Source of the DNA: a virus
Lineage: Duplodnaviria; Caudoviricetes
Reading direction: 5' to 3' (one strand)
Virus record (IMG/VR): IMGVR_UViG_3300021399_000098
DNA: 64,000 nucleotides
Shown here: positions 9,092-64,000 of the stretch, piece after piece
Numbering within the stretch: position 1 is the first letter of the stretch
Layout of the letters: each line of letters opens with the position of its first letter
Notes under the pieces: model-generated
Databases searched by the model: none
Told to the model about the DNA's origin: nothing
The model's input: only the letters and a program-made list of their open reading frames with translations
Position numbers and translations under genes: made by a program

Positions 9092-11422
9092 CTAAATAGC
9101 ACCTTTTATATTGTTTACTTCAAACAATAAACCAAGTTTCTCATCATAAACTGCCGAATGAAGCAATAATGGAGACTCTTCATGTTTAGCAATTATAATC
9201 CAATTATTCATATTTAATTCATGGCCATTTCTCATACCATATTTATATTTGTATATATTTTCTGGTAACACCTCTTTAAAATAGTTAATATGGGTTTTAA
9301 TAGCATCATACTTTGTTTCACTATCATTTTCTATTTTATAAGACGGTATTTGTATGTTTCCACTAATGCTGCCATCACTTTTTTTTGCTCTAGCAAAAAT
9401 ATCTTCACTAACGCCCCTAAATCCAAGTCTAGATGATATTACTTTCGAATTTTTCTTTTTACTCGTTCTACGCGGTTTCATACTAGAATAAGATGCAGAT
9501 GATTCAATAAACAAACACTTCCAATACTTTTTAAACAGCCCTCTATTTTTATCACAAAATTCTGAATACAAATTATAAAAATCTTCTTTAGTTAATAATC
9601 TACCATTATAACCCTTTAAAAAATTACACCAAGCATAATATATTTTGATTCCTTCTTCACATTCATAAAATGCTTCAATAAACTTATTCGTTGATTTATT
9701 ATTTACAATAATACAGTTAAGTATCACTTCGGAATCATACTCATTAAATCTATTACCTCTACCTAACCTTTGTATTGTATTTTCTGGTGAAACAACCTCA
9801 TCATTTATTTCTATTGCAGAAATATCACAACCAGTTCCAATAATAGAAGTACCAAAAACTGTTTTTCTATCATTCAAATCGCTGTTTTTTGACCTATTTT
9901 CAAACACCTCATTTAATAGTCTTTCACTATCTTCTAACGTAAAATAAGCATGTAACAATATAGTGTTTTCATAGTTTCCATATTTATTACAAAATACTTG
10001 AGAATTTTTTACAGTATTGAAAATAGATATTGAATTATCATTTACATCAATTTTACTAATATCATCAATCTCTTTTACATTAATACGTATTTTCTTATCT
10101 TTATCATACACACCAAAATCTATAAATTTAACATTATCTCCCCAAAACATATTATGATATAATGGTGGTGTTGCTGATAGTAAAAGTGTTCTAGAATTAG
10201 TAACTCTAAATCTAGCACCGCACATTGATATAAAACTTGAAAACATTGGCTTTGAATTTGTATAATTTTGGAATTCATCAAACACAACATCACAAGTTAA
10301 CGTATTTAATAATTGATGTGCAGCACCATTCTTAACGTTCATACCTAGAAAACTATCTATGACAGAAACAATAATGTCTGAATTTTCATCACCTTCTTTA
10401 TAATCGCCACCAACTAAAAGGGCGATGGAAATATCATCTTGCCGATTAATAATAGCGACAATTTTATTTAATTCTCTAAAAGAGTTTTCTGCAATACTAA
10501 TAGTCGGTGTTACCCAAAACAGCTTTCTATTACTTTGAGTCCACCATCTGAATCCAACAAACGTTTTTCCAAAACCAGTGCTAGCCTTCAAAATTACATT
10601 TTCGTAACTAGATATTTCGGTAACAAGTTTTTCTTGCTTTTCCAATCTTACTTTGTCAAAACTTTCAATGTTTCTAAAATCAATGCCATTTATAGCTTCT
10701 TTAATACTTGAACACCCATAGCTATCAATTATATTATCCATAAATTTAATATCGTTAGATACAAACTTATCAATGTCTTTGTAAAATTTAGATACCATTC
10801 TGTCTGAATAGATTAATATTGCTCTCATAAGCAAAGACATAATTAATCTATCCATACTATCTACATCTAAGTCTCTAACTTTTGGGTACATTGTAACATT
10901 TGAAACTGTTATTTCACTTGATTCATTTTCAATTAATCCAACATCAATTCCGTCCTCTTTTAAAATGGCAGCAAAGAAAAGAAACATTTCTTTTGCATTA
11001 CCAATATCATTTTTAATCTTATAACATATATCATCTACTGATAAATCACCATCTACTTCTAATACATGGTGATATAAAATGGTTCTTTTTTCATCATCAC
11101 TAAGATTAGTATACTTATTCAAAAATGCCCATGTCATAACATCATGAGTTAACTCTAGACTATCTGAATCATCACTATTTGTTGAATTAGTTAGGCTTTT
11201 TTGGAAAGCCTCTGCTACCTTTAACAAATCATGACAAATACAAACCTTGGCAATAGATTTTCTTAGTTTCTCGTTAGAATACTTAAGACTCCATAAAGCA
11301 TCCTTCTTGATAATTCTATCAAAACACCTTAATCCAAAATTTTTGGTTGCTATTGAATGGTCGATAACTGTTGTCCCACCATTATTGAGACTCTTTGCTT
11401 TAAAAACGTTTAAATCTGTCAT
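9092..11422 (-). CDS. cas3: CRISPR-associated HD nuclease-SF2 helicase Cas3
   Basis: HD residues DHS / CHDLLK / THD / YHH / SDR; helicase motifs ASTGFGKT, DEFQ, SATPP, FNTV, GCDIS, QRLGRGNR; adjacent to array. Confidence 0.92.
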   Translation of the reverse strand: MTDLNVFKAKSLNNGGTTVIDHSIATKNFGLRCFDRIIKKDALWSLKYSNEKLRKSIAKVCICHDLLKVAEAFQKSLTNSTNSDDSDSLELTHDVMTWAFLNKYTNLSDDEKRTILYHHVLEVDGDLSVDDICYKIKNDIGNAKEMFLFFAAILKEDGIDVGLIENESSEITVSNVTMYPKVRDLDVDSMDRLIMSLLMRAILIYSDRMVSKFYKDIDKFVSNDIKFMDNIIDSYGCSSIKEAINGIDFRNIESFDKVRLEKQEKLVTEISSYENVILKASTGFGKTFVGFRWWTQSNRKLFWVTPTISIAENSFRELNKIVAIINRQDDISIALLVGGDYKEGDENSDIIVSVIDSFLGMNVKNGAAHQLLNTLTCDVVFDEFQNYTNSKPMFSSFISMCGARFRVTNSRTLLLSATPPLYHNMFWGDNVKFIDFGVYDKDKKIRINVKEIDDISKIDVNDNSISIFNTVKNSQVFCNKYGNYENTILLHAYFTLEDSERLLNEVFENRSKNSDLNDRKTVFGTSIIGTGCDISAIEINDEVVSPENTIQRLGRGNRFNEYDSEVILNCIIVNNKSTNKFIEAFYECEEGIKIYYAWCNFLKGYNGRLLTKEDFYNLYSEFCDKNRGLFKKYWKCLFIESSASYSSMKPRRTSKKKNSKVISSRLGFRGVSEDIFARAKKSDGSISGNIQIPSYKIENDSETKYDAIKTHINYFKEVLPENIYKYKYGMRNGHELNMNNWIIIAKHEESPLLLHSAVYDEKLGLLFEVNNIKGAI

Positions 11423-11451
11423 ATTTTATATATATATATTTAATTATACTG

Positions 11452-11459
11452 CAAATGTA
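11452..11459 (-). promoter_or_regulatory. -7 box (TACATTTG) of a dedicated cas3 promoter
   Basis: TAnnTTTG match about 30 bp upstream of the cas3 ATG, in the same context as other promoters in the window; no perfect -33 TTTG. Confidence 0.55.
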
Positions 11460-11503
11460 CGAATAAAAATTAAATTATAAAAGTAATGTTCTAATTTTTA
11501 ACA

Positions 11504-12392
11504 CTTTTTATTACATTAAGTTTTAACACTAAAAACACCAAGCCCATCTGTAGGATTGTTGGCTATTTGTTGTCATTACACTAAGTTTTAACACTAAAAA
11601 CATCAAACATCATGTTAATACGCTGTGTGCAATAGTTGTCATTACTCCAAGTTTTAACACTAAAAACACATAAGTTATATTCCTTAAATCGATAAAATTA
11701 TTGTCATTACATTAAGTTTTTATACTAAAAAACATTTGACCCATTCTTCTTGATAAAAATAAAGTGTTTGTCATTACATTAAGTTTTTATACTAAAAACG
11801 CCTTAATAACGATGTTCTTTGCCGCATAACGGTTGTCATTACACTAAGTTTTCATACTAAAAACACAACGCACTGATATTGATAAAGTGTATATCTAGTT
11901 GTCATTACATTAAGTTTCAATAAAAACACTTTGAGTTTTAAAGATGCTCATTATATATTTATTGTCATTACATTAGGTTTCCATACTAAAAACACCATAT
12001 AAAACGGTGAACATAAAACAACGCAAATTGTCATTACACTAAGTTTTCATACTAAAAACACCATACAGTGCAGCACACTTTGTTGTCTCTTCGTTGTCAT
12101 TACACTAAGTTTTTATACTAAAAACGCCCAAAGATTCAGCACGAACATGTGCATTATGGTTGTCATTACACTAAGTTTTCATACTAAAAACACCGAATCT
12201 CCTATCATCGTGTAACCGCATACAGTTGTCATTACACTAAGTTTTTATACTAAAAACACCTTCAGCAGAATGTGATTCAACTTCAGCAATGTTGTCATTA
12301 CACTAAGTTTTTATACTAAAAACACCTCCTAGAGCTTTTGCCTCATTGCTACGTGCGTTGTCATTACACTAAGTTTTCATACTAAAAACACC
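11504..12392 (-). CRISPR. CRISPR array: 14 repeats (36 nt; plus-strand consensus GTTGTCATTACACTAAGTTTTYATACTAAAAACACC) and 13 spacers of 29-30 nt
   Basis: Repeats start at 11504, 11569, 11635, 11700, 11767, 11832, 11898, 11961, 12027, 12093, 12159, 12225, 12291, 12357; spacers unique; repeats degenerate toward 11504. Confidence 0.97.
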
Positions 12393-12428
12393 TAATAACT
12401 CATAACAGTCTATATTATAAGTTATTAG
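12392..12428 (-). promoter_or_regulatory. 16-bp RNA hairpin forming most of the short leader between cas5 and the first repeat
   Basis: CUAAUAACUUAUAAUA-UAGAC-UGUUAUGAGUUAUUAG, fully paired on the minus strand with two G-U pairs. Confidence 0.65.
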
Positions 12429-12436
12429 ACGATAAA

Positions 12437-13405
12437 TCACTCAGAAATTTTGGTAAATTCTTCTTTCCAATCAAACATTGGTGGTAATTTTCCTATTCCT
12501 AAAATCTTAACAACCCCACCATCCATAATGGTTGGCATTCTTCCATACTGTCTAAGTTCTTCTATCAGATTTTCATTTTCAATCTCAACTATAATTCTAC
12601 CATTATAAGTTACCTTTTTACTTTTAATGCCATGTCTTTCTAGAATTGGGCATTTTGAGGAACAATCACAATTATGAGAAGTCGTTGTATTCTTAATGTT
12701 TCCATTGAACACTGCTTCATACCATCCTTGTGATGAAATTATTTTTAATCTATCGCCATATTCTTTCTTGAAAGATTTCATTTCATCGCTATCCACATAC
12801 TTTTTAACTTCAACTAGGAATTCTGGAAAAGAGTATTTCTTAATGACATCTTCACAGCCAAACAACTTATTAAAAAAATCTTTTACAATCTCAAATAAAA
12901 GTTCATCACCATTCTTTTTTCTCTCATTCGATTTAACAAATGATGGATAATTAAACCATTTAGGTTTAAACTGTGCTTTAAAACTCTCCCACGTAAAATT
13001 ACCTTGATATTTTTCGCCACCAACAATTGTGGTAACTTTTCTATTTGAGTCAAAATTTGCCTTTTGGGACCAAAATGTGGTGGTTAAAAATCTTTTATCA
13101 CCTTTCTTTGTTATGTAGAAATATTGATTATCATATTTAACATAACTATGATTTAATGCCAAGTCATAAATCTCTTCATTCCTTGTAAAGATACTTTTCC
13201 TCATACTAGGAACTGGAGGGTATCCAAACAAATAATGAAGCATATTGCTAATATGATTAACCTTTAATGGGTTATTCAAGTCCACCTCATATGAGGTGGA
13301 CTTGTAAATTGAATTTTCATCCCTTCTATAGTCTGTTGATTTACTATTTGACTTGCTATCCACCATTAAATCAGCAGATTTAAATTCTAAATATAAATAA
13401 TACAT
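12437..13405 (-). CDS. cas5: Divergent, enlarged Cas5-like RAMP
   Basis: N-terminal beta strand YYLYLEFKSA then P..HISNMLHYLFG (Cas5-like); directly downstream of cas7; 322 aa. Confidence 0.6.
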   Translation of the reverse strand: MYYLYLEFKSADLMVDSKSNSKSTDYRRDENSIYKSTSYEVDLNNPLKVNHISNMLHYLFGYPPVPSMRKSIFTRNEEIYDLALNHSYVKYDNQYFYITKKGDKRFLTTTFWSQKANFDSNRKVTTIVGGEKYQGNFTWESFKAQFKPKWFNYPSFVKSNERKKNGDELLFEIVKDFFNKLFGCEDVIKKYSFPEFLVEVKKYVDSDEMKSFKKEYGDRLKIISSQGWYEAVFNGNIKNTTTSHNCDCSSKCPILERHGIKSKKVTYNGRIIVEIENENLIEELRQYGRMPTIMDGGVVKILGIGKLPPMFDWKEEFTKISE

Positions 13406-13407
13406 AA

Positions 13408-14484
13408 CTAAATACTCTCCGCAATACTTAAATCATCCTCTTCTTCTTTACTACTTTTTTTTGTTTTTTTGTTGGCTTTTTCCAACTTTTGCTCTTCATT
13501 CAATTTTACAATTTCTTGTATGTTCTTTTCTTGAGCCTTTTTATACTCTTCAATATATGTAGAATCCGCAACTTTATAAAAACAATCAATTTTGCTAAGA
13601 TTCATATTTTCAATATCATCAATTGAACGTATATTAATCCATTCATTCTCATAATCCAAGCTAACTAAATCATCACATAACTGAATTTTAAGCGATGTTG
13701 TCTTCATACTGCCCATTCTACCATGAGCTTCAACACGAAGCATACTAATCAAAGTATTTTTAAGTATACGCTCAATAACTTCATTGTTAAGAAGTATTCC
13801 ATATTCTGGATGAACACTTCTATTTGCTAAAAAATAACCTACTGTTGGATTTGACAAATCACCAAACTCTTGATTTAAAAACTCTTTAAATTTACCACTG
13901 CTTACCCAATCTGGTAGAACATACATTCTATCATTTTTTTCACTAGCTGATAAGAATTGAATTTCACACATATCTATGTTTCCCTCTGCTTCCCATACAG
14001 TCTTACCAAGAGTCTCCACATTGAACATAGATGTTGAAGCTCTTTTACCAGTTGTTGGGTCTACAACATTTGACGTTTGAACAGTAAACTGTGGTTTTGC
14101 GTCATTTACTAATGAAGCATCAGTAATGTTAAAACTACTTTTTTTGTGCAAGTTAATACCTTTTTTAAGAAGTAAAGTAGTTCCTCTACATAAAGTCTCC
14201 CACCTTGCAAGTTCATGCATTGTTATGTTTTCATTAATCGCATCATATGGAGAAACTTGATTACCAAATATATAATACCTCAACTTGTTTTTATCAATTT
14301 TAGGAACAGCCATTAATTTTTCACCGTCATTTTGATAATAATTTTTTTTCATGACAAGAGTATTATCATTAAACTTTCCATGACAACTATAAAGCTCGTT
14401 TAAGATACCAAGCTGATTTTCAAGGGAATCATAATTTACACAACCCTCTCCTTCAAAAATAATTTTAAATTTAATTGACCTCAT
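13408..14484 (-). CDS. cas7: Cas7-like backbone subunit (type I)
   Basis: N-terminal GCVNYD, PKIDKNKLRYYIF, KKSSFNITDA, SMFNVE pattern resembling DevR/Csa2-type Cas7; lies between cas6 and cas5. Confidence 0.72.
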   Translation of the reverse strand: MRSIKFKIIFEGEGCVNYDSLENQLGILNELYSCHGKFNDNTLVMKKNYYQNDGEKLMAVPKIDKNKLRYYIFGNQVSPYDAINENITMHELARWETLCRGTTLLLKKGINLHKKSSFNITDASLVNDAKPQFTVQTSNVVDPTTGKRASTSMFNVETLGKTVWEAEGNIDMCEIQFLSASEKNDRMYVLPDWVSSGKFKEFLNQEFGDLSNPTVGYFLANRSVHPEYGILLNNEVIERILKNTLISMLRVEAHGRMGSMKTTSLKIQLCDDLVSLDYENEWINIRSIDDIENMNLSKIDCFYKVADSTYIEEYKKAQEKNIQEIVKLNEEQKLEKANKKTKKSSKEEEDDLSIAESI

Positions 14485-14494
14485 ATTTTTTATT

Positions 14495-15160
14495 TTAAAT
14501 TAATTTAACAGAACCAAAACCAAAACCAGTTGATGAACCTAATCCTAGCTCATATATAAGTTTTCTTGCTTTTTTATTTCCTTTAACAAGTAACATCACT
14601 TGTGAACATATATTTTTACACCCATTTATATTATAAAAACGTATTTTAGAATTTTCTGGATGAAATAATTCAAAATCCAAAGTATTAGCTATTCTTTCAC
14701 TTAAACCATTATGTATCAATTTTTTAATTGACTTTTCTCTTAAATGAGGAACAAATTCATCATCTTCAAATGTTATGAATTTATCTTTAGTTTGTAACCT
14801 TATTGGACTAGTTGTACGAATTATATCGTATTCAGAATGAACATTAAATTCAGATAACTCAAATTTTCTAAATTTTAAATTTGAAATGTATAACTCATTT
14901 CTATTATATGTAAGACTTAAAACTATTTTATCAATAAACTCATTATCACATGACGAAATAGTTAAAAACGCCCCATCAACAAAAATCACATTACCATCTA
15001 GATATATCCCATTCTGTAAACGTGAAACACTATATTTAGAAAACTTCCCATGATAAGGATTATTTTCTCCCAAAAGTTTATTCACAAATCCATTAACTTT
15101 TTTGTAAGAAATGTTAACGTCAAATTCATCTTTTCCATCAAAAAATATTTTTATAATCAT
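14495..15160 (-). CDS. cas6: CRISPR RNA endoribonuclease Cas6
   Basis: C-terminal G-rich loop GLGSSTGFGFGSV, TTSPI motif, N-terminal YH...YSVSRL. Confidence 0.9.
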   Translation of the reverse strand: MIIKIFFDGKDEFDVNISYKKVNGFVNKLLGENNPYHGKFSKYSVSRLQNGIYLDGNVIFVDGAFLTISSCDNEFIDKIVLSLTYNRNELYISNLKFRKFELSEFNVHSEYDIIRTTSPIRLQTKDKFITFEDDEFVPHLREKSIKKLIHNGLSERIANTLDFELFHPENSKIRFYNINGCKNICSQVMLLVKGNKKARKLIYELGLGSSTGFGFGSVKLI

Positions 15161-15186
15161 ATAATTTTAATTTAATTATTATGATA

Positions 15187-15218
15187 CAAATATATATAAA
15201 AAAAATTGGATTAACAAA
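15187..15218 (-). promoter_or_regulatory. Bacteroidota sigma-A type promoter of the cas6-cas7-cas5 operon
   Basis: Minus strand TTTG-N20-TATATTTG. Confidence 0.7.
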
Positions 15219-15723: not shown

Positions 15724-16296
15724 TTATTTATTTTTTCTCATTTCAGCAATAGGTCTAAGTATATCTTGAAATCCATCTATCTTACTACCTATATATTCTT
15801 TACAATAGCTTACTCTCGTAAGCCTATTCCTATATTTTTGGTTGTCAGCAGATTTCTTGTCTCTACCCTTTCCGTCAAACACAGTACCTCTAACATTTGG
15901 ATTCCTTGAAAGTGCCTCTCCAAACTTTCTATGCGCTGTTTTTATATACAGCTTATAATCATGCTCATCATCTGATAGTGACTTAACTATGCCACCAACG
16001 AAATTGAATATAATCGTGCTAAGTCCTAGTCCTTGATAGTCTTCAAGTATAACAATTCTACTTATAGAACAACCATAAGGTATTCCTTTTCTAGGCGTGT
16101 TAAGAATTCCAACGAATCCGACTGGAACACCATCCCATTCAAATAACAAACATTTACAAGACTTATTAATTTCAGCAGTCAAATAATGGCATTTTGAAAA
16201 TCCTAAGCTTTTCCACACACTAGGTTCTACTCTTCTAACAGTTAATTGAATGTTTGGTCTTTGTCCTTTAGAATGGTCAATCTTTATTACTTTCAT
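15724..16296 (-). CDS. GNAT acetyltransferase (type associated with phage ABC ATPases); likely start MKVIKID at 16296
   Basis: HYL, SRIVILEDYQGLGLS acetyl-CoA-binding motif, KTAH. Confidence 0.75.
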   Translation of the reverse strand: MKVIKIDHSKGQRPNIQLTVRRVEPSVWKSLGFSKCHYLTAEINKSCKCLLFEWDGVPVGFVGILNTPRKGIPYGCSISRIVILEDYQGLGLSTIIFNFVGGIVKSLSDDEHDYKLYIKTAHRKFGEALSRNPNVRGTVFDGKGRDKKSADNQKYRNRLTRVSYCKEYIGSKIDGFQDILRPIAEMRKNK

Positions 16297-17380
16297 TCGA
16301 GTTTTTTTTATTACAATTATTTTCATGATACTTAAATGTGTAACCGTGATGTTGTTTAAATTTACCTTTTAAACACATTCTAACACATTTTAAATCAAAA
16401 TTCATTTTCAAACACATTTGAGATATTGATGAATAAGTTTCTATAAAATTTCCATCTAAATCTAATAAATCAACTCTATGTGACGTTTTGCTGTGTGTAT
16501 TTTCAGATAGCATGTTTTCAGAATGAGATACCCATTCTAAATTTTCAACTTTATTATTTTTAGTATTAGAATCCTTATGATTAACTTCTGTGCTCCCATT
16601 CAAATTTGGTATAAAAGTTTGTGCAACAAGTCTATGGACAAAATACTGCTTCCCATTCACGAATACCCTCATATATCCCAAAGTATTATCACTTCCATAA
16701 GTAATTCTTTCTCGTCCTCTCCATTGCATTTTAACTCTTCCTAAATCACTTATTTCAATATTCAAAAAAGGATGTTTTTTAAAAATTTCCCCATACAGTT
16801 CTTTGTCTTTAACATATTCCCACTTATATCCACAAGCACTTTTTGCTTCACCTCTGCAAGCTCTTCTTATATTTTCGTATGGACGTTTGTAATTATTAAT
16901 ACCCAATTCTTTTACTGCTTCTTTTGTTGAATCAAATACTCCAACAACGTTATTAAAAAAATCAGTACATTTAACCTTTATTTTTCTATTATTTGTTTTA
17001 TTCGGTTTCCTTTTATTTCTTGAATTAATATTGTTGGCATTATCTTTTTGAGATAGGTATCTCAAATTTGAAAGGTAATTATTTAAAGGATTTGAATCTA
17101 TATGGTCTACTGTTAGTTCTTTTTTAATACCGTAAAAACATTCACAAATAAATCTATGCACAAGCATAATATATCTTTTACCGCATTTGTATAGTGATAC
17201 AATTAATCTACCATTTTGTATTGGCACTTGTTTTCTAATCTTATTAGTTTTTGTTCTTCTAATTTTTCCTAAATTAGAACCTTCATATTCAGTAAAAAAT
17301 GGATGCTGTCTCCATATTTCGGTAAAACCATTTATTTTCACACTTTCTCCTTTTTTATGATTAATTTGAATTGTTTTCAC
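16277..17380 (-). mobile_element. Free-standing HNH homing endonuclease with two tandem NUMOD4-HNH-NUMOD1-like modules
   Basis: SNLGKIR...VHRFICECF...VDHIDSNPLNNYLSNL and SDLGRVK...VHRLVAQTF...VNHKDSNTKNNKVENLEW. Confidence 0.85.
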
Positions 17381-19974: not shown

Positions 19975-20595
19975 CTATTCTGTTTTTTCTTTGTTTATTT
20001 TCTCTCTGATTTTTTCTTTCCAACACTTTCTACAAATGGCTCTGTACTTGTCGTTTCCACCTATCATTACTTGTGCACCTTCTGTGATTATATTGCCGTC
20101 CTCATCAAACCTTGCGTTTATTGACGTTTTCCTATCACCGCACTCACAAGTTGACTTTATTTCTTCGATGTCATCTGCAAGCTCAAAAAGACGTTTGGAA
20201 CTTGGGAATAACTTTGATTGGAAATCGGTTCTCAACCCAAAACACATCACATTGACATTCAAAAAGTCAACCACATCAGATAACTGGTCTACTTGGTCTT
20301 CCGTTAAAAATTGGCACTCATCTATTATAACCCATTTAAGTGTTTCAAACTGTAACGCTAGGACATTTCTGTATGCTTTAACTGCTTTATATAAATTAAC
20401 GTCTCGGTCAACCATTATACATTTGCGCTCAAGTCCTGCTCTAGAACGAATGATACCTTCCCCATCCCTTGTGTCCAATGATGGTTTGAAAACCATTATT
20501 TGTACACCTTTTTCCTCAAAGTTATAAGCTGTGCTCAATAACCTCAGTGTTTTGGCTGAAGCCATTGAGCCGTAATAGTAGAATAATTTACTCAT
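19975..20595 (-). CDS. tdk: Thymidine kinase
   Basis: GSMASAKT, IDECQFL, FGLRTDF, Zn-binding CECG...CRKC. Confidence 0.93.
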   Translation of the reverse strand: MSKLFYYYGSMASAKTLRLLSTAYNFEEKGVQIMVFKPSLDTRDGEGIIRSRAGLERKCIMVDRDVNLYKAVKAYRNVLALQFETLKWVIIDECQFLTEDQVDQLSDVVDFLNVNVMCFGLRTDFQSKLFPSSKRLFELADDIEEIKSTCECGDRKTSINARFDEDGNIITEGAQVMIGGNDKYRAICRKCWKEKIREKINKEKTE

Positions 20596-46013: not shown

Positions 46014-46032
46014 AAACGGAATCCTATTTTTT
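45996..46032. terminator. Bidirectional intrinsic terminator
   Basis: AAAAAATAGGATTC / GAATCCTATTTTTT between convergent genes. Confidence 0.75.
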
Positions 46033-47118
46033 ATTTATTTGCTCCTCCAATAACGTTTTAGCGCCATTAGAATCTTTATCATAATCTGACTCCCATATCT
46101 CTATAAGATTAATTCCATTTTCACTGCAATATTCCCTCAACTCATTGTCCTTAGTAACTTTTTTCTTTTGGAATTCACTAAGTTCGTCATTAGAATATTT
46201 ATTAGGGTTTCCATGCCAATAGTCACCTTGAAACTCAATAATCATATTTTTACTAGGAATATATACATCACAATAATGGTGAATGTCTTTCAAATAATAC
46301 TGGGTATCGTAATCTATTCCTAATGGTTTAATACAATATTCTATAAATTCTTTTTCTTTTTTAGATGATAAAGAAAACTCAGTTTCAGTTAACATTTTAC
46401 GCATTTTCTCCCTATTTCTTAAAATAGAATTTTCGCTTCTGCCATTTTGTCTACATTTTTCAGCATGTTCTTTAGATTTTGGTACACCTTTAAGTTTAGC
46501 TGCTATTTTACTATTTCTACTTTCATCAGAATAATTTTTCATTAACTCTTTTATCTTGTTTTCTGTAAATGTTTCTTTCCAAGATTTTCCTTTATTCCAT
46601 TGTATTCTTTCTCCATTTTTATATTGCCCCCTTCTAGTTTCGGCAGAATGTAGTTTTGCTTGTTCATTATGACCCCAATTATTATGAACCCTAGAATGAT
46701 GACCACGCATATAATCTGCAAAATGGACACCACCATCATATCTTATTTCAGTATATTCACCGCACCCACATTTACATTTTGGTCTAATGCCGCCATATTT
46801 GTAATCAGTTAGCAATTGTTCTTGAGTAATATAATCACCATGCTCTTTGTGCCTAAATATGTGTTTGCATAACCCATTATAGGTTTCAAACCTTTTATCA
46901 CAATATGGGCATTTATATTCCCCATCATTTTTCTGTTGATTGGTGAATTCACCAGAATATTTAAATGTAAAACCATTAACTTGTTTTATCTTACCTAGAC
47001 AACATTTAGATATATTACTTTTAGTAGATTCCACTGCATTTGCTGCTTCAGTTGCAGAATTATATACTGCAACCTCTTTTCCATCTTTAAATTGTATAAT
47101 TTGTTTTTTTAACCCCAT
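46024..47118 (-). mobile_element. Free-standing homing endonuclease (NUMOD1 + Zn fingers + NUMOD3 + Vsr/DUF559-like nuclease)
   Basis: YNSATEAA...ISKCCLGK, CPYC..H, CKCGCG, C-terminal DVYIP..IIEFQGDYWH..KD..IEIWE; directly downstream of the tube gene. Confidence 0.75.
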
Positions 47119-47905: not shown

Positions 47906-49564
47906 ATGGTAGATAAAAAAGCAAAATTCATTGAAAAGTCTAAAAATAGGCATGGTGATAAATACGACTATTCTAAAGTGGAATATATTGATAGTTTAAC
48001 AAAAGTATGTATCATATGCCCCATTCATGGCGAATTTTGGCAAACTCCACAAGGTCATGTAAGGGGTCAAGGTTGCCCAAAATGTGCAAACATCAAAAGA
48101 GGTGATACATTTAGGTCTGATGGTGATACATTCATTAAACGTGCAACTGTTTTGCATGATGGTAAATATATATACGATAAAGACTCTTACATTAATGCAA
48201 TGACAAAAGTTCCAATACTTTGCTTAAAGCACGGAACATTCTGGATGACTCCAATGAATCATCTACTAGGTCAAGGTTGTCCTAAATGCAGTGGTAGGGG
48301 GTTAAACACTGAAGAGGTTATAGAACTGTTTAAGGAGAAACATGGCGATAGCTATGATTATTCCAAAGTTGTATTTACTAAAATGCATGAAAAGGTTTGT
48401 ATAATATGCAAAGAACATGGTGAATTCTGGCAAACCCCTAGCAAGCATCTTTTAGGTCAAGGATGCCCAAAATGCAGTGGTATTAAAAAAGCAAAAGAAA
48501 GGACATTAACAACAAATGATTTTATTGAAAAATCTTCGAAAATTCACAACAATAAATACGTTTATGACAAAACAAAATATAAAGGTACATATGAATCGCT
48601 TACAATAACTTGCCCCATTCACGGAGATTTTACGCAAAGGGCGAATGACCACCTCAATGGTCACGGATGCCCAATATGCGGCAACAATATGTCGCTTGCT
48701 GAGAAAGAAATTGAAGATTATGTTAAATCTTTTGGTGTTAAAACTGAAACTAAAATTAGAGGCATACTAAGCAATAATAAAGAAATTGATATATTAATAC
48801 CAGAATTAAACATAGGAATTGAATATAATGGCTTAAAATGGCACTCTGATGAATTTAAAGATAAAAATTATCATCTAAATAAAACAGAAGAATGTAAAAA
48901 ATTAGGAATACGACTTGTTCATATCTTTGAAGATGAATGGATGAATAAAAAAGAAATTGTTAAAAGCATTATACGCAATATAATCGGTAAAACTGAAAAT
49001 AAAATATATGCTAGAAAATGTATCATTCAAAATGTTAATGACAATGAGAAAAAAGAATTTTTAGAAAAAAATCATATACAAGGAAATATTAATTCACAAA
49101 TAAATTTAGGACTATATCACGATGGTGAACTAGTATCACTAATGTGCATCGGTAAACCTAGAATCAATTTAGGCAGAAAAACATCATTAGAAAATGAATA
49201 TGAACTCTTACGTTTTTGTAATAAACTTAATACAAATATTGTTGGCGGTGCAAGTAAACTATTTAAATATTTTATAACAAACTATAGTCCAACGCTAATA
49301 ACATCCTACTGCGATTATAGATGGAGCATTGGTAATATGTATGAAGCATTGGGATTTACTTTATCCCATCTTTCACAGCCAAACTACTATTACATAATTG
49401 GCAATAATAGAAAAAATAGATTTAAATATAGAAAATCAGAATTAATTAAAGAAGGTTTTGACCCAGAAAAATCAGAAAAAGAAATAATGGAAGAAAGAGG
49501 AATACACCGAATATACGATTGTGGGTCATTGGTATATATATGGAAAAATGAGGATAGAAACTAA
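47906..49564 (+). mobile_element. Hef-like homing endonuclease with four Zn-ribbon (KYDYS...CPxHG...GCPxC) repeats
   Basis: Repeated HGDKYDYSKV...HGEFWQTP..H..GQGCPKC; EIDI..GIEYNGLKWH; IFEDEW; C-terminal RIYDCG. Confidence 0.78.
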
Positions 49565-51840: not shown

Positions 51841-52887
51841 TTAAATATCATCGAATGAAACACCCTCTATTTTCTTTTTTAATTGTTCCATATTATTACA
51901 AACATTATCATTTGTGTAAAGTCCATCAAACTTTTTGCTAGACTTATAATAAGGTACTGTATTCTTTTTTGGGATATAATATAACAATTTTATCCCTTTT
52001 TCTTTACATAACTTATTTTTATACAAGTCTCTATGCAAATTTTTCTCAAATTCTTCCTCAGCCCATTTTTCTCCTCTCCCAGCAAAATCTACTGATTTAA
52101 AATGCTGTCTCCCTTGACATTCTATTGCAACATTTTCTTTAACAAGATAAAAATCAAGTGAATTTTTATTATTAGTCTTATCGTATCTATATTGACTAAT
52201 AAAATCAATTTTATTTTCTAATAGCCAGTTAAAGACCTCTTTTTCTAACTTACTTTGAGCACAATGAGGACACCCCCTACCTCTTAAATGGTTATTTGGA
52301 GTAACATAAAATATCCCATGTTTTTTACATATCACTGGTATTTTTGTTCTATTATTGGAATATTTAGTAAACAATGAATAATCATATAAATCTCCATAAA
52401 CATTTTTAAATTGTTCTTTAACATTATCCACTGTTAATCTCCCTCTACTATCCCATATTCTTTTACATTTACATTTAGGACAACCTTGACCACGAATGTG
52501 GTCTACTGGTCTTTGCCAGAATTCACCGTGTTCTACACCATTTTCGTCTTTTTCATGGCAAATTATGCATACATTATTATGTGTCCCATTTACTTCAGAC
52601 TTTGAATAATCATACCTCCCATCATGAACTTTTTTTGCTTCATTGATAAATGATTCAGTTGTTCTCTTGGCATTTCCACTACAATATGGACATCCATGTT
52701 TTCTATTTATGTGATGGTCAAAATCTTGATAAAAAACACCATGTTCAATACCATTTTTATCTTTTTCGTGACACACAATTGGATATTTTACTCTGTTATT
52801 TTTGTACTCATGGATTAACGAATAATCATATTTGTGATTATGAATTTCATTTGCTTTGTCTATTACTTTTTCTAAATTACATTTCAT
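51841..52887 (-). mobile_element. Free-standing homing endonuclease (three Zn-ribbon repeats + PD-(D/E)XK nuclease); likely start MKCNLEK
   Basis: KYDYS...HG.F...H..GCP.C repeats; SKLE, LDFYL, AIECQGRQHF; C-terminus EGVSFDDI identical to sheath. Confidence 0.78.
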
Positions 52888-52988
52888 ACTTCCTTCTATT
52901 TTAATATAAATAGTTACTAAACTCAAAAACCACTCCTTCTGGTGCAAAGATATGTAATATTTTTTTAATAAACAAATTTTTAGCCAAA

Positions 52989-63037: not shown

Positions 63038-64000
63038 TTAGATAAATATTTTATTTAAATCATTTGTATTGGCAGCTTTAAATGTTTCCTTATAAATTTC
63101 TTTTCTACCAACCTTTTTTAGTTCTTTGTGGGTTGGAAACAAACTTTTATACAATCTATCCATTGCATATATTGAATGATAACACACATTATGTTCCTTT
63201 ATAATAGTTCCTCTCCAAGATTGATAGCAGTTCCATATGTCGTTTTCTGTCATCCTACCACTGTCATACATTCTCTTAAATGCCTTTAGTCTCCTTCTCT
63301 CCCTAACTATTTTTTTCCTAGTTAATCTTTTCAATATTTTTCCATTTGGAAGTATGTTATATTTTATCTGTAGAAATGTAAATCCGTGAGATAGTTTGAC
63401 TACATGTGTTTTCTTTTTATTAATCTCAAGCTTGAGATATGTTAAAGTATTTTCTATCTCCGAAAGTAATGAATATAATTCCTTTTTGGATTTCCCTATT
63501 ATAAATATATCATCCATATACCTTCCGTAATATTTAACACCCTTTACCACCTTTGCAAACACATCTACAGGAGTAAGGTAGTACAATGCCAATATCTGTG
63601 GTGCTTCACTCCCAAGATTCAATCCCTTGTCACTTTTTGAACTGTTGTCTATCACATAGTTTATAAGAGATATTATGTGAGGATTTTTATCCTTTATTTT
63701 CGGATATATAAGTTGTTTCAACGTCTCATGGTCAATACTTTCAAAGTATTTCTTTATGTCAATAAGTAATATATATCCATCAGTGCCATTTTTATGTATG
63801 TATTTTCTTAACAGTATCTCAAACCTTTTTCTAGCAAAAGAAGTACCCCTATTCTTTATTGACGCATAGTTGTCATAAATAACGAAAGGTATCAACGAAG
63901 GAGTAAGGACATCAACAGTTAACACTTTTTGTACTATCTTATCCCTTACTATAGGGGCTTCTATATGCCTTATGTGACCACGTTCATTTAGGTAAAATTC
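63038..64000 (-). CDS. Reverse transcriptase, DGR-like; 5' end lies beyond window
   Basis: Frame open to 64000 (ERGHIRHIEAPIVRDKIVQK), DIKKYFESIDH, GLNLGSEAPQ, RYMDD, GFTFL. Confidence 0.88.
   Translation of the reverse strand, partial: EFYLNERGHIRHIEAPIVRDKIVQKVLTVDVLTPSLIPFVIYDNYASIKNRGTSFARKRFEILLRKYIHKNGTDGYILLIDIKKYFESIDHETLKQLIYPKIKDKNPHIISLINYVIDNSSKSDKGLNLGSEAPQILALYYLTPVDVFAKVVKGVKYYGRYMDDIFIIGKSKKELYSLLSEIENTLTYLKLEINKKKTHVVKLSHGFTFLQIKYNILPNGKILKRLTRKKIVRERRRLKAFKRMYDSGRMTENDIWNCYQSWRGTIIKEHNVCYHSIYAMDRLYKSLFPTHKELKKVGRKEIYKETFKAANTNDLNKIFI

Follow-up and report, generated by a model that had tools for sequence, protein, structure and literature searches.

A phage-borne type I CRISPR-Cas system resembling I-F2, with an array that grows at its leader end and a spacer supply that may come from the host

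How does a virus-encoded CRISPR array keep acquiring spacers when no adaptation genes are found with it, and which machinery wrote the format that it displays? These questions are raised by a locus in IMG/VR record IMGVR_UViG_3300021399_000098, of which we analysed a stretch of 64,000 nucleotides (hereafter the window), which lies on a 401,247-bp contig of sheep-rumen metagenomic origin. Here, an array of 36-nt repeats and mostly 30-nt spacers (a 36/30 format) adjoins genes for Cas6, Cas7fv-like, probable Cas5fv-like and Cas3 proteins. This is the cognate array of a type I system, carried by a phage and resembling I-F2, in which both Cas8 and an adaptation module are missing. The array has gained spacers at the leader end in nature, and we favour, with moderate confidence, the view that its spacers are loaded by the host.

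The array, first proposed from the sequence letters in the original prediction, proved real and correctly placed at 11504-12392. Its 14 repeat copies are spaced 63-67 nt from start to start, most commonly 66, and the 33-nt repeat core yielded 11 matches at up to three mismatches compared to none in 100 shuffles; the same core search identified no other array of this kind in the 64-kb window. As in CRISPR arrays generally, regular direct repeats alternate with spacers of similar length, all 13 of which are unique. Counted with 36-nt repeats, nine spacers measure 30 nt, three 29 nt and one 31 nt, and assigning an extra A near 11735 to the repeat turns these figures into ten of 30 nt and three of 29 nt, exactly the count first reported. 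One old copy, at 11898, carries a 3-nt deletion. A search of Rfam over the array at permissive thresholds recovered no CRISPR-DR family and no credible RNA family. On the plus strand the repeats read GTTGT...ACACC, as had been noted originally, but the functional strand is the minus strand, which had been missed: since the repeats are perfect at the 12392 end, beside cas5, and decay toward 11504 on the cas3 side, and since all flanking cas genes share the minus-strand orientation, the array is taken to be read in that direction. In the RNA sense, the repeat begins with 5' GGUG and ends with AAUGACAAC. The originally proposed likeness to the end of the Prevotella buccae Cas13b repeat, which we treat as an assumption, falls on the leader-proximal end, i.e. 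the 5' end of the RNA.

The genes at the array are those of a class 1 effector (Cas6, Cas7fv-like, Cas5fv-like and an HD-helicase Cas3; Table 1), in agreement with the original proposal. The minus-strand operon runs in the order cas6, cas7fv-like, cas5fv-like, a 44-nt leader, the array and cas3, with gaps of 2-10 nt among the three Cascade genes and with all neighbouring genes on the same strand. Cas6 matches TIGR01877 at 1.1e-22 (81.5 bits, above the 58.65 cut-off), as well as PF01881, PADLOC Cas6b (4.5e-29) and the Cas6 of M. jannaschii (5yi6, 3.4e-10); no match to Cas6f was recovered in NCBIfam, PADLOC or PDB comparisons. Cas7 carries the precomputed Pfam assignment PF28157 (Cas7fv-like), matches the Cas7fv model NF040577 at 3.3e-9, short of the cut-off of that model, and aligns with Cas7fv of 5o6u_C at 4e-4. 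Cas3 opens with the HD domain and has no Cas2 part; TIGR01587 and TIGR01596 both score below cut-off, leaving the protein short of the curated equivalog thresholds, and the PADLOC models Cas3fv (1.7e-36) and Cas3b (1.2e-32) match. The remaining protein, of 322 aa, gave no match in Pfam, NCBIfam, PADLOC or PDB sequence searches. It directly follows cas7 in every related locus, and an AlphaFold2 model of moderate quality (predicted local distance difference test score, pLDDT, 63) returned as top Foldseek matches the I-Fv/I-F2 Cascade chains 5o6u_F (E 9e-4) and 9g44_B, followed by other CRISPR RAMP proteins. Position and a weak fold match thus point to a probable Cas5fv-like subunit.

Congruent with type I, HD nuclease and superfamily 2 (SF2) helicase are joined in a single Cas3 protein, and Cas5, Cas7 and Cas6 subunits are present. 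The operon comprises only cas6, cas7, cas5, the array and cas3, with neither a large (Cas8) nor a small (Cas11) subunit gene. Regarding class 2, the families recorded for called genes of the window include no Cas13 type, no Cas13b model having been run, and cas9, cas1 and cas2 are likewise missing from these genes, tracrRNA not having been searched for. Unlike type II-C, where transcription proceeds toward the leader, the array is co-oriented with its cas operon.

Related loci demonstrate that the array kept gaining spacers at the leader end in nature. The general polarity is as expected: the leader marks one end, the repeats decay toward the opposite one, and strains differ on the leader side. 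The array of the closely related locus L002, where Cas7 is 93% identical, shares the trailer-side spacers 6, 8, 9, 10 and 11 of the window, and the two differ at the leader end, with six spacers in L002 versus five in the window. In a sheep-gut contig from another study, the leader-side repeat is joined straight to spacer 9, and this contig carries spacer 10 of L002; taken together, the three arrays thus line up as a ladder with growth on the leader side. At the more distant locus L003 (11996-12954), a repeat variant (TTTCTAG, with a final G for C) is confined to the four or five leader-side copies, as is to be expected if each integration duplicates the first repeat. Similarly, in the large majority of 18 parsed arrays, perfect copies sit next to the leader and the far end holds decayed ones.

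Which enzyme, then, performs the integration? No Cas1, Cas2 or Cas4 Pfam family is on record for the genes called at contig positions 281,595-349,032, which cover the whole window. Among viral records with the system, Cas1 was found in 0 of 28 and Cas2 in 0 of 29, including five complete genomes of 310-419 kb, and a search with the Cas1 model only gave 0 of 12 for records of close relatives, again with five complete genomes (401-413 kb) included; the Cas1 model search was positive in 7 of 14 control genomes. A 13-bit Cas1-like match in one genome (G026) was judged to be chance, as it contains two stops and is out of frame with the local open reading frame. A cas1/2 pair of the phage itself, named in the original prediction as evidence that would speak against borrowing, was found neither among the window genes nor in the five complete system-bearing genomes. 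Because Cas1 and Cas2 were not found in the window or in complete system-bearing relatives, nor Cas1 in close relatives, insertion of spacers in trans by host Cas1-Cas2 is the best reading, and one that we consider reasonably probable. The idea of borrowed host adaptation is supported in so far as no adaptation genes were found, the array grows at the leader end and its format fits a documented precedent (PMC8092290); what is not supported is the accompanying notion of mimicry by the phage.

That notion is contradicted by the distribution of the format. The Cas7 family comprises 340 cluster representatives at E <= 0.001, and all contexts that were opened show the order cas6, cas7, cas5 with cas3 alongside in surroundings of large-phage appearance, with no adaptation genes near the cas genes. 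Repeats of 36 nt with a period of 65-66 nt are found at L003 (Cas7 57% identical), L011 (38%), L012 (34%) and L051; no array was found at L010 and L005. A Cas7 profile search of IMG/VR provided 34 loci, many on contigs of 200-420 kb, and in more than 20 phage loci with Cas7 25-60% identical the repeats are 36 nt, free of gaps and end in AAT(C/G)ACAAC. The source samples of the loci sharing the format include rumen, pig gut and others. Among 257 spacers of the family, 188 measure 30 nt and 46 measure 29 nt. The alignment of 16 distinct repeats spans 36 columns and needs no gap, with the blocks AAT (columns 28-30) and ACAA (32-35) invariant, the whole 3' end AAT(C/G)ACAAC nearly so, and a 5' end that mostly reads (A/G/C)(T/G/C)TG. 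The alignment also shows a 3-bp stem in which one pair covaries and which stops exactly 8 nt short of the 3' end, and a small stem followed by an 8-nt handle is the usual layout of class 1 repeats; the repeat of the window itself is essentially unstructured, the stem of the lineage being weak there. Other formats occur only in two distant loci, L027 (28-nt repeat) and L045 (32-nt repeat). The 36/30 format and the AAT(C/G)ACAAC end are thus old and inherited with the cas genes of a huge-phage lineage, rather than a likeness to host repeat ends adopted by this phage, as the format is common to the lineage down to 25% Cas7 identity. A separate oddity is seen at L014 (10119-10495), where the period is 80-81 nt and the 3' repeat motif TAAGGTAATCACAAC stands twice in tandem per unit.

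Two AATCACAAC motifs about 66 nt apart occur in 92 IMG/VR stretches, many of which are the loci described above. Eight IMG/VR records, all incomplete, have arrays of the same superfamily and no Cas7fv-like gene that we could find. Arrays of this kind (L056/L119, L072/L091/L124, L081, L082, L103, L111 and L113) have 36-nt repeats that end in GGTAATCACAAC or GGGAATCACAAC and recur with a 66-nt period. If true, superfamily arrays without the Cas7fv-like gene would mean that the format is not bound to this Cascade, which would fit a writer outside the phage.

Some of the spacers have candidate targets. Spacers 5 (12063-12092), 3 (12195-12224) and 2 (12261-12290) also occur in contigs of rumen metagenomes, there flanked by non-repeat sequence, spacer 3 as a 30/30 match in a sequencing run of the same study and spacers 5 and 2 in another study. 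In the CRISPR RNA (crRNA) sense, the 5' flanks of spacers 5, 3 and 2 read AGGTG, AGGTG and GAGTT. The conserved flank lies on the side that faces the leader, as expected for Cas1-Cas2 integration generally; with three flanks, we regard this as a lead, not as a protospacer-adjacent motif (PAM). Comparison of the array with phages gave chance matches only (E ~1), and comparison with plasmids yielded no protospacer. No protospacers were recovered for exact 24-nt cores of spacers 1 and 3 in IMG/VR, for the L038 and L036 arrays in phages, or for the 257 family spacers in all collected loci.

The best-documented parallel for an array of this format is found in Flavobacterium columnare, where II-C and VI-B repeats are both 36 bp with 5'-GTTGT-3' leader-distal and base 36 beside the leader, and where the VI-B array is read from its leader and loaded in trans by the II-C Cas1 (PMC8092290). 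As judged by description, the window array shares with this VI-B array the 36-bp repeats, the leader-distal GTTGT, the leader-side base 36 and transcription from leader to array, and it equally represents a growing array with no adaptation genes at its locus. The 36/30 dimensions, leader-distal GTTG and reading from the leader also agree with the VI-B array description in that study, the agreement being with the description and not from direct alignment of repeats. Since II-C repeats in most other Bacteroidota are about 11 bp longer, at approximately 47 bp (PMC8092290), 36/30 represents the VI-B rather than the II-C format. The two systems differ in that a virus-encoded class 1 Cascade and Cas3 stand here in place of Cas13b, and in that loading in trans is proposed here. 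The likeliest donor, and the least certain part of our interpretation, is an integrase that serves Bacteroidota 36/30 arrays with leader-distal GTTGT, i.e. the VI-B format, for which II-C Cas1-Cas2 fulfils this role in F. columnare. A specific class 2 donor would be plausible; PMC8092290 notes that the origin of such arrays elsewhere is not known.

Several observations weigh against loading by a host integrase, or against a donor of this kind. A II-C integrase with a 47-bp ruler does not obviously yield 36-bp repeats, and the flank motif described above abuts the protospacer, the position typical of type I, rather than being offset as is usual for II-C PAMs. The conserved 3' end of the repeats is explained equally well by handle recognition through Cas5 and Cas6 alone. 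The likeness to named Cas13b repeats is tentative, being drawn from the prose of PMC8092290 and not from aligned sequences. No host array with the window repeat was found in 185,579 species genomes using two patterns, which miss a deviation at any fixed position. Furthermore, the inspected stretch spans contig positions 281,595-349,032 of 401,247, so that about 84% of the phage contig lies outside the Cas1 scan. In the repeat searches, the relaxed 20-base pattern gave one match, in Kosakonia, of a single copy and judged to be chance, and the stringent pattern gave none; in JGI metagenomes, the one match to the repeat patterns was likewise a single copy outside any array and attributed to chance.

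Of the alternatives, loading by a class 1 adaptation module of the host, for example from a Cas6-using I-B or III-B locus or a Bacteroidota reverse transcriptase-Cas1 (RT-Cas1) module, survives best. In that case 36/30 would simply be a Bacteroidota format, with no borrowing across classes. The Cas6 of the window is of the generic I-A/I-B/III kind, the family repeat has the small stem and 8-nt handle of class 1, and the candidate PAM lies directly beside the protospacer. In gut Bacteroidetes, moreover, VI-B loci have recruited type III-derived RT-Cas1/Cas2 (PMC11662929), so that integrases of class 1 origin serve this array format too, and in P. gingivalis VI-B and other arrays share no repeats (PMC10367356). 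However, the genome search detected no host array of any type with the window repeat, and the sole donor shown experimentally for a cas1-less 36/30 Bacteroidota array is the II-C Cas1 (PMC8092290). We therefore hold a class 1 loader to be rather unlikely.

Less probable still is an integrase supplied by the phage from elsewhere in its 401-kb genome, be it a divergent Cas1-Cas2 or an unrelated enzyme. The limited span inspected leaves space for such a gene, and the cas island is accessory, as five complete relatives without a Cas7fv-like gene attest, so another accessory island could exist. On the other hand, neither Cas1 and Cas2 in five complete system-bearing genomes nor Cas1 in five complete close relatives were found. 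Even more remote appears the scenario where acquisition has ceased and the strain differences stem from deletion or recombination among the repeats of long-filled arrays. A variant missing spacers 1-8 could indeed represent a deletion between repeats, but the spacers unique to the window and L002 are located only at the leader end and the shared ones at the trailer end, the L003 variant is restricted to leader-side copies as first-repeat duplication predicts, and the polarity from perfect to decayed repeats is observed in the large majority of the 18 arrays. Finally, the idea that this phage recently reshaped its type I array, as a one-off, into the likeness of host class 2 repeat ends, yielding a cross-class chimera, would explain the GTTGT end and the 36/30 geometry, but is most improbable given the same geometry and 3' end at loci where Cas7 is 25-60% identical. 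Host-dependent loading thus remains the interpretation that we prefer.

The type to which the effector is closest in its working, I-F2 (I-Fv), has repeats of 28 nt. Like the I-F2 system of Shewanella putrefaciens CN-32 (5O6U, 5O7H; PMC4937334), the locus lacks a large subunit, with Cas5, Cas7 and Cas6 only and an HD-dependent Cas3, and this likeness extends to weak sequence similarity in Cas7 and weak fold similarity in the Cas5 candidate. I-Fv has its own Cas1, a Cas2-3 fusion, Cas6f, 32-nt spacers and a GG PAM (PMC4937334). In contrast, here Cas3 stands alone, Cas6 is of the generic Cas6b type, the format is 36/30, the carrier is a phage and Cas1/Cas2 are absent from the locus. Because it lacks Cas6f, the Cas2-3 fusion, Cas1 and the 28/32 format, we class the system as a variant with an I-F2-like mode of working rather than as I-F2 proper. 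It further resembles the CRISPR systems of huge phages in its compact array and lack of Cas1, Cas2 and Cas4 (Al-Shayeb et al. 2020, PMC7162821; PMC13037316), systems that have been suggested to exploit Cas proteins of the host by means of host-like repeats (PMC7162821, PMC13037316). Unlike the systems of PMC7162821, which are I-C-like without Cas6 or belong to class 2, it belongs to a Cas6/Cas7fv-like lineage with uniform 36/30 arrays, which was not found in the literature examined. Type IV-A3 plasmid systems are similar as class 1 systems of mobile elements that have no adaptation module and reportedly acquire spacers in trans from the Cas1-Cas2 of another system (bioRxiv 10.1101/2023.06.23.546257); these are plasmid-borne with DinG, as opposed to phage-borne with Cas3.

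How the system may operate can be outlined from its parts. The operon would be transcribed on the minus strand from a promoter upstream of cas6, across the 44-nt leader and into the array. Cas6 is predicted to cleave each repeat 8 nt short of its 3' end, which would generate a crRNA with an 8-nt 5' handle (AUGACAAC), followed by a guide of 30 nt and, on the 3' side, by 28 nt of repeat. On this crRNA, Cas5 and Cas7 would then assemble, and Cas3 would degrade matching DNA, its targets most likely being rival mobile elements of the rumen.

Between the stop codon of cas5 and the first repeat lies a leader of only 44 nt. It folds into a hairpin of -12 kcal/mol (z -4.56) that was equalled in 0 of 200 shuffles; this hairpin may be an attenuator or act as a signal for processing or integration. 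The L002 leader is nearly identical to that of the window. In other related arrays the leaders are equally short and differ in sequence, with a palindrome in about half as judged by eye. At the other end of the operon, a promoter-like sequence precedes cas6. TTTG...TAnnTTTG is a promoter type of Bacteroidota, and in the form TTTG-N17-22-TAnnTTTG it occurs 14 times in the window versus 4.8 +/- 2.6 in shuffles, with 0 of 100 shuffles reaching 14. The copy upstream of cas6 is inferred from the sequence to act as the promoter of the operon.

Table 1. Features of the CRISPR-Cas locus and their positions in the window
Feature	Position	Strand	Basis or remark
cas6, generic Cas6/Cas6b-type endoribonuclease, 221 aa	14495..15160	(-)	TIGR01877, PF01881, PADLOC Cas6b
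cas7fv-like backbone subunit, 358 aa	13408..14484	(-)	PF28157, weak Cas7fv similarity
Probable cas5fv-like subunit, 322 aa, without sequence-level family	12437..13405	(-)	gene position and weak fold match
Leader, 44 nt, mostly one 15-bp hairpin touching the first repeat	12393..12436	(-)	folding versus shuffles
CRISPR array, 14 x 36-nt repeats and 13 spacers	11504..12392	(-)	newest spacer 12327-12356; degenerate trailer repeat at 11504
Stand-alone cas3, HD nuclease and SF2 helicase, 776 aa	9092..11422	(-)	DEAD, Cas3-like_C_2, Cas3_HD
Bacteroidota-type promoter (TTTG ... TAnnTTTG), putative	15187..15218	(-)	27 nt upstream of cas6 start

The carrier is a huge myophage, as deduced from its genes for a very large tail sheath, a tape-measure protein and baseplate components. 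Its host probably belongs to the Bacteroidota, judging by the promoter enrichment, and the contig of a distant relative was binned in a metagenome-assembled genome labelled Prevotella sp., representing a weak host link. No GenBank phage showed a near match to the locus. Using the thymidine kinase, close relatives were recovered in 12 records, among them five complete genomes of 401-413 kb (G040, G043, G044, G045 and G048; thymidine kinase 64-89% identical), none of which has a Cas7fv-like gene. The CRISPR module is therefore an accessory island, which spans 9092-15218 and lies beside a gp13-like neck gene.

Other features of the phage were noted in passing. The thymidine kinase (19975-20595) has thousands of homologues, with the best 120 at 81-94% identity, and one homologue that was examined belongs to a related phage whose neighbouring genes are arranged in the same order; this phage family seems to be very common in data sets from rumen and gut. 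Genes resembling HNH/NUMOD and DUF723 homing endonucleases are found at 16277-17380, 46024-47118, 47906-49564 and 51841-52947, one of them a short way upstream of the cas island. At 63038-63925, a gene for a reverse transcriptase (RVT_1) may form part of a diversity-generating retroelement.

Phage CRISPR systems without adaptation genes, and the possible use of host proteins by these, have been published before (PMC7162821, PMC13037316); the window adds one more member together with natural evidence of growth at the leader end. The effector, which pairs a compact three-protein Cascade with Cas3 and has a guide fixed at 30 nt and a clear handle, may also interest tool builders. More tentatively, we envisage a widespread lineage of huge Bacteroidota phages in which a class 1 DNA-degrading effector is tied to the array format of the Cas13b and Cas9 systems of the host phylum, such that the host integrase writes the memory of the phage, and in which the superfamily represents a writing format shared by several phage elements. 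If so, the format of an array would tell who writes it, not who reads it, which would offer a simple rule for predicting the hosts and integrase partners of huge phages and help to explain how cas1-less VI-B arrays of Bacteroidota are filled. Should a host integrase indeed load these arrays, the virus would outsource the memory step of immunity and keep its own killing machinery.

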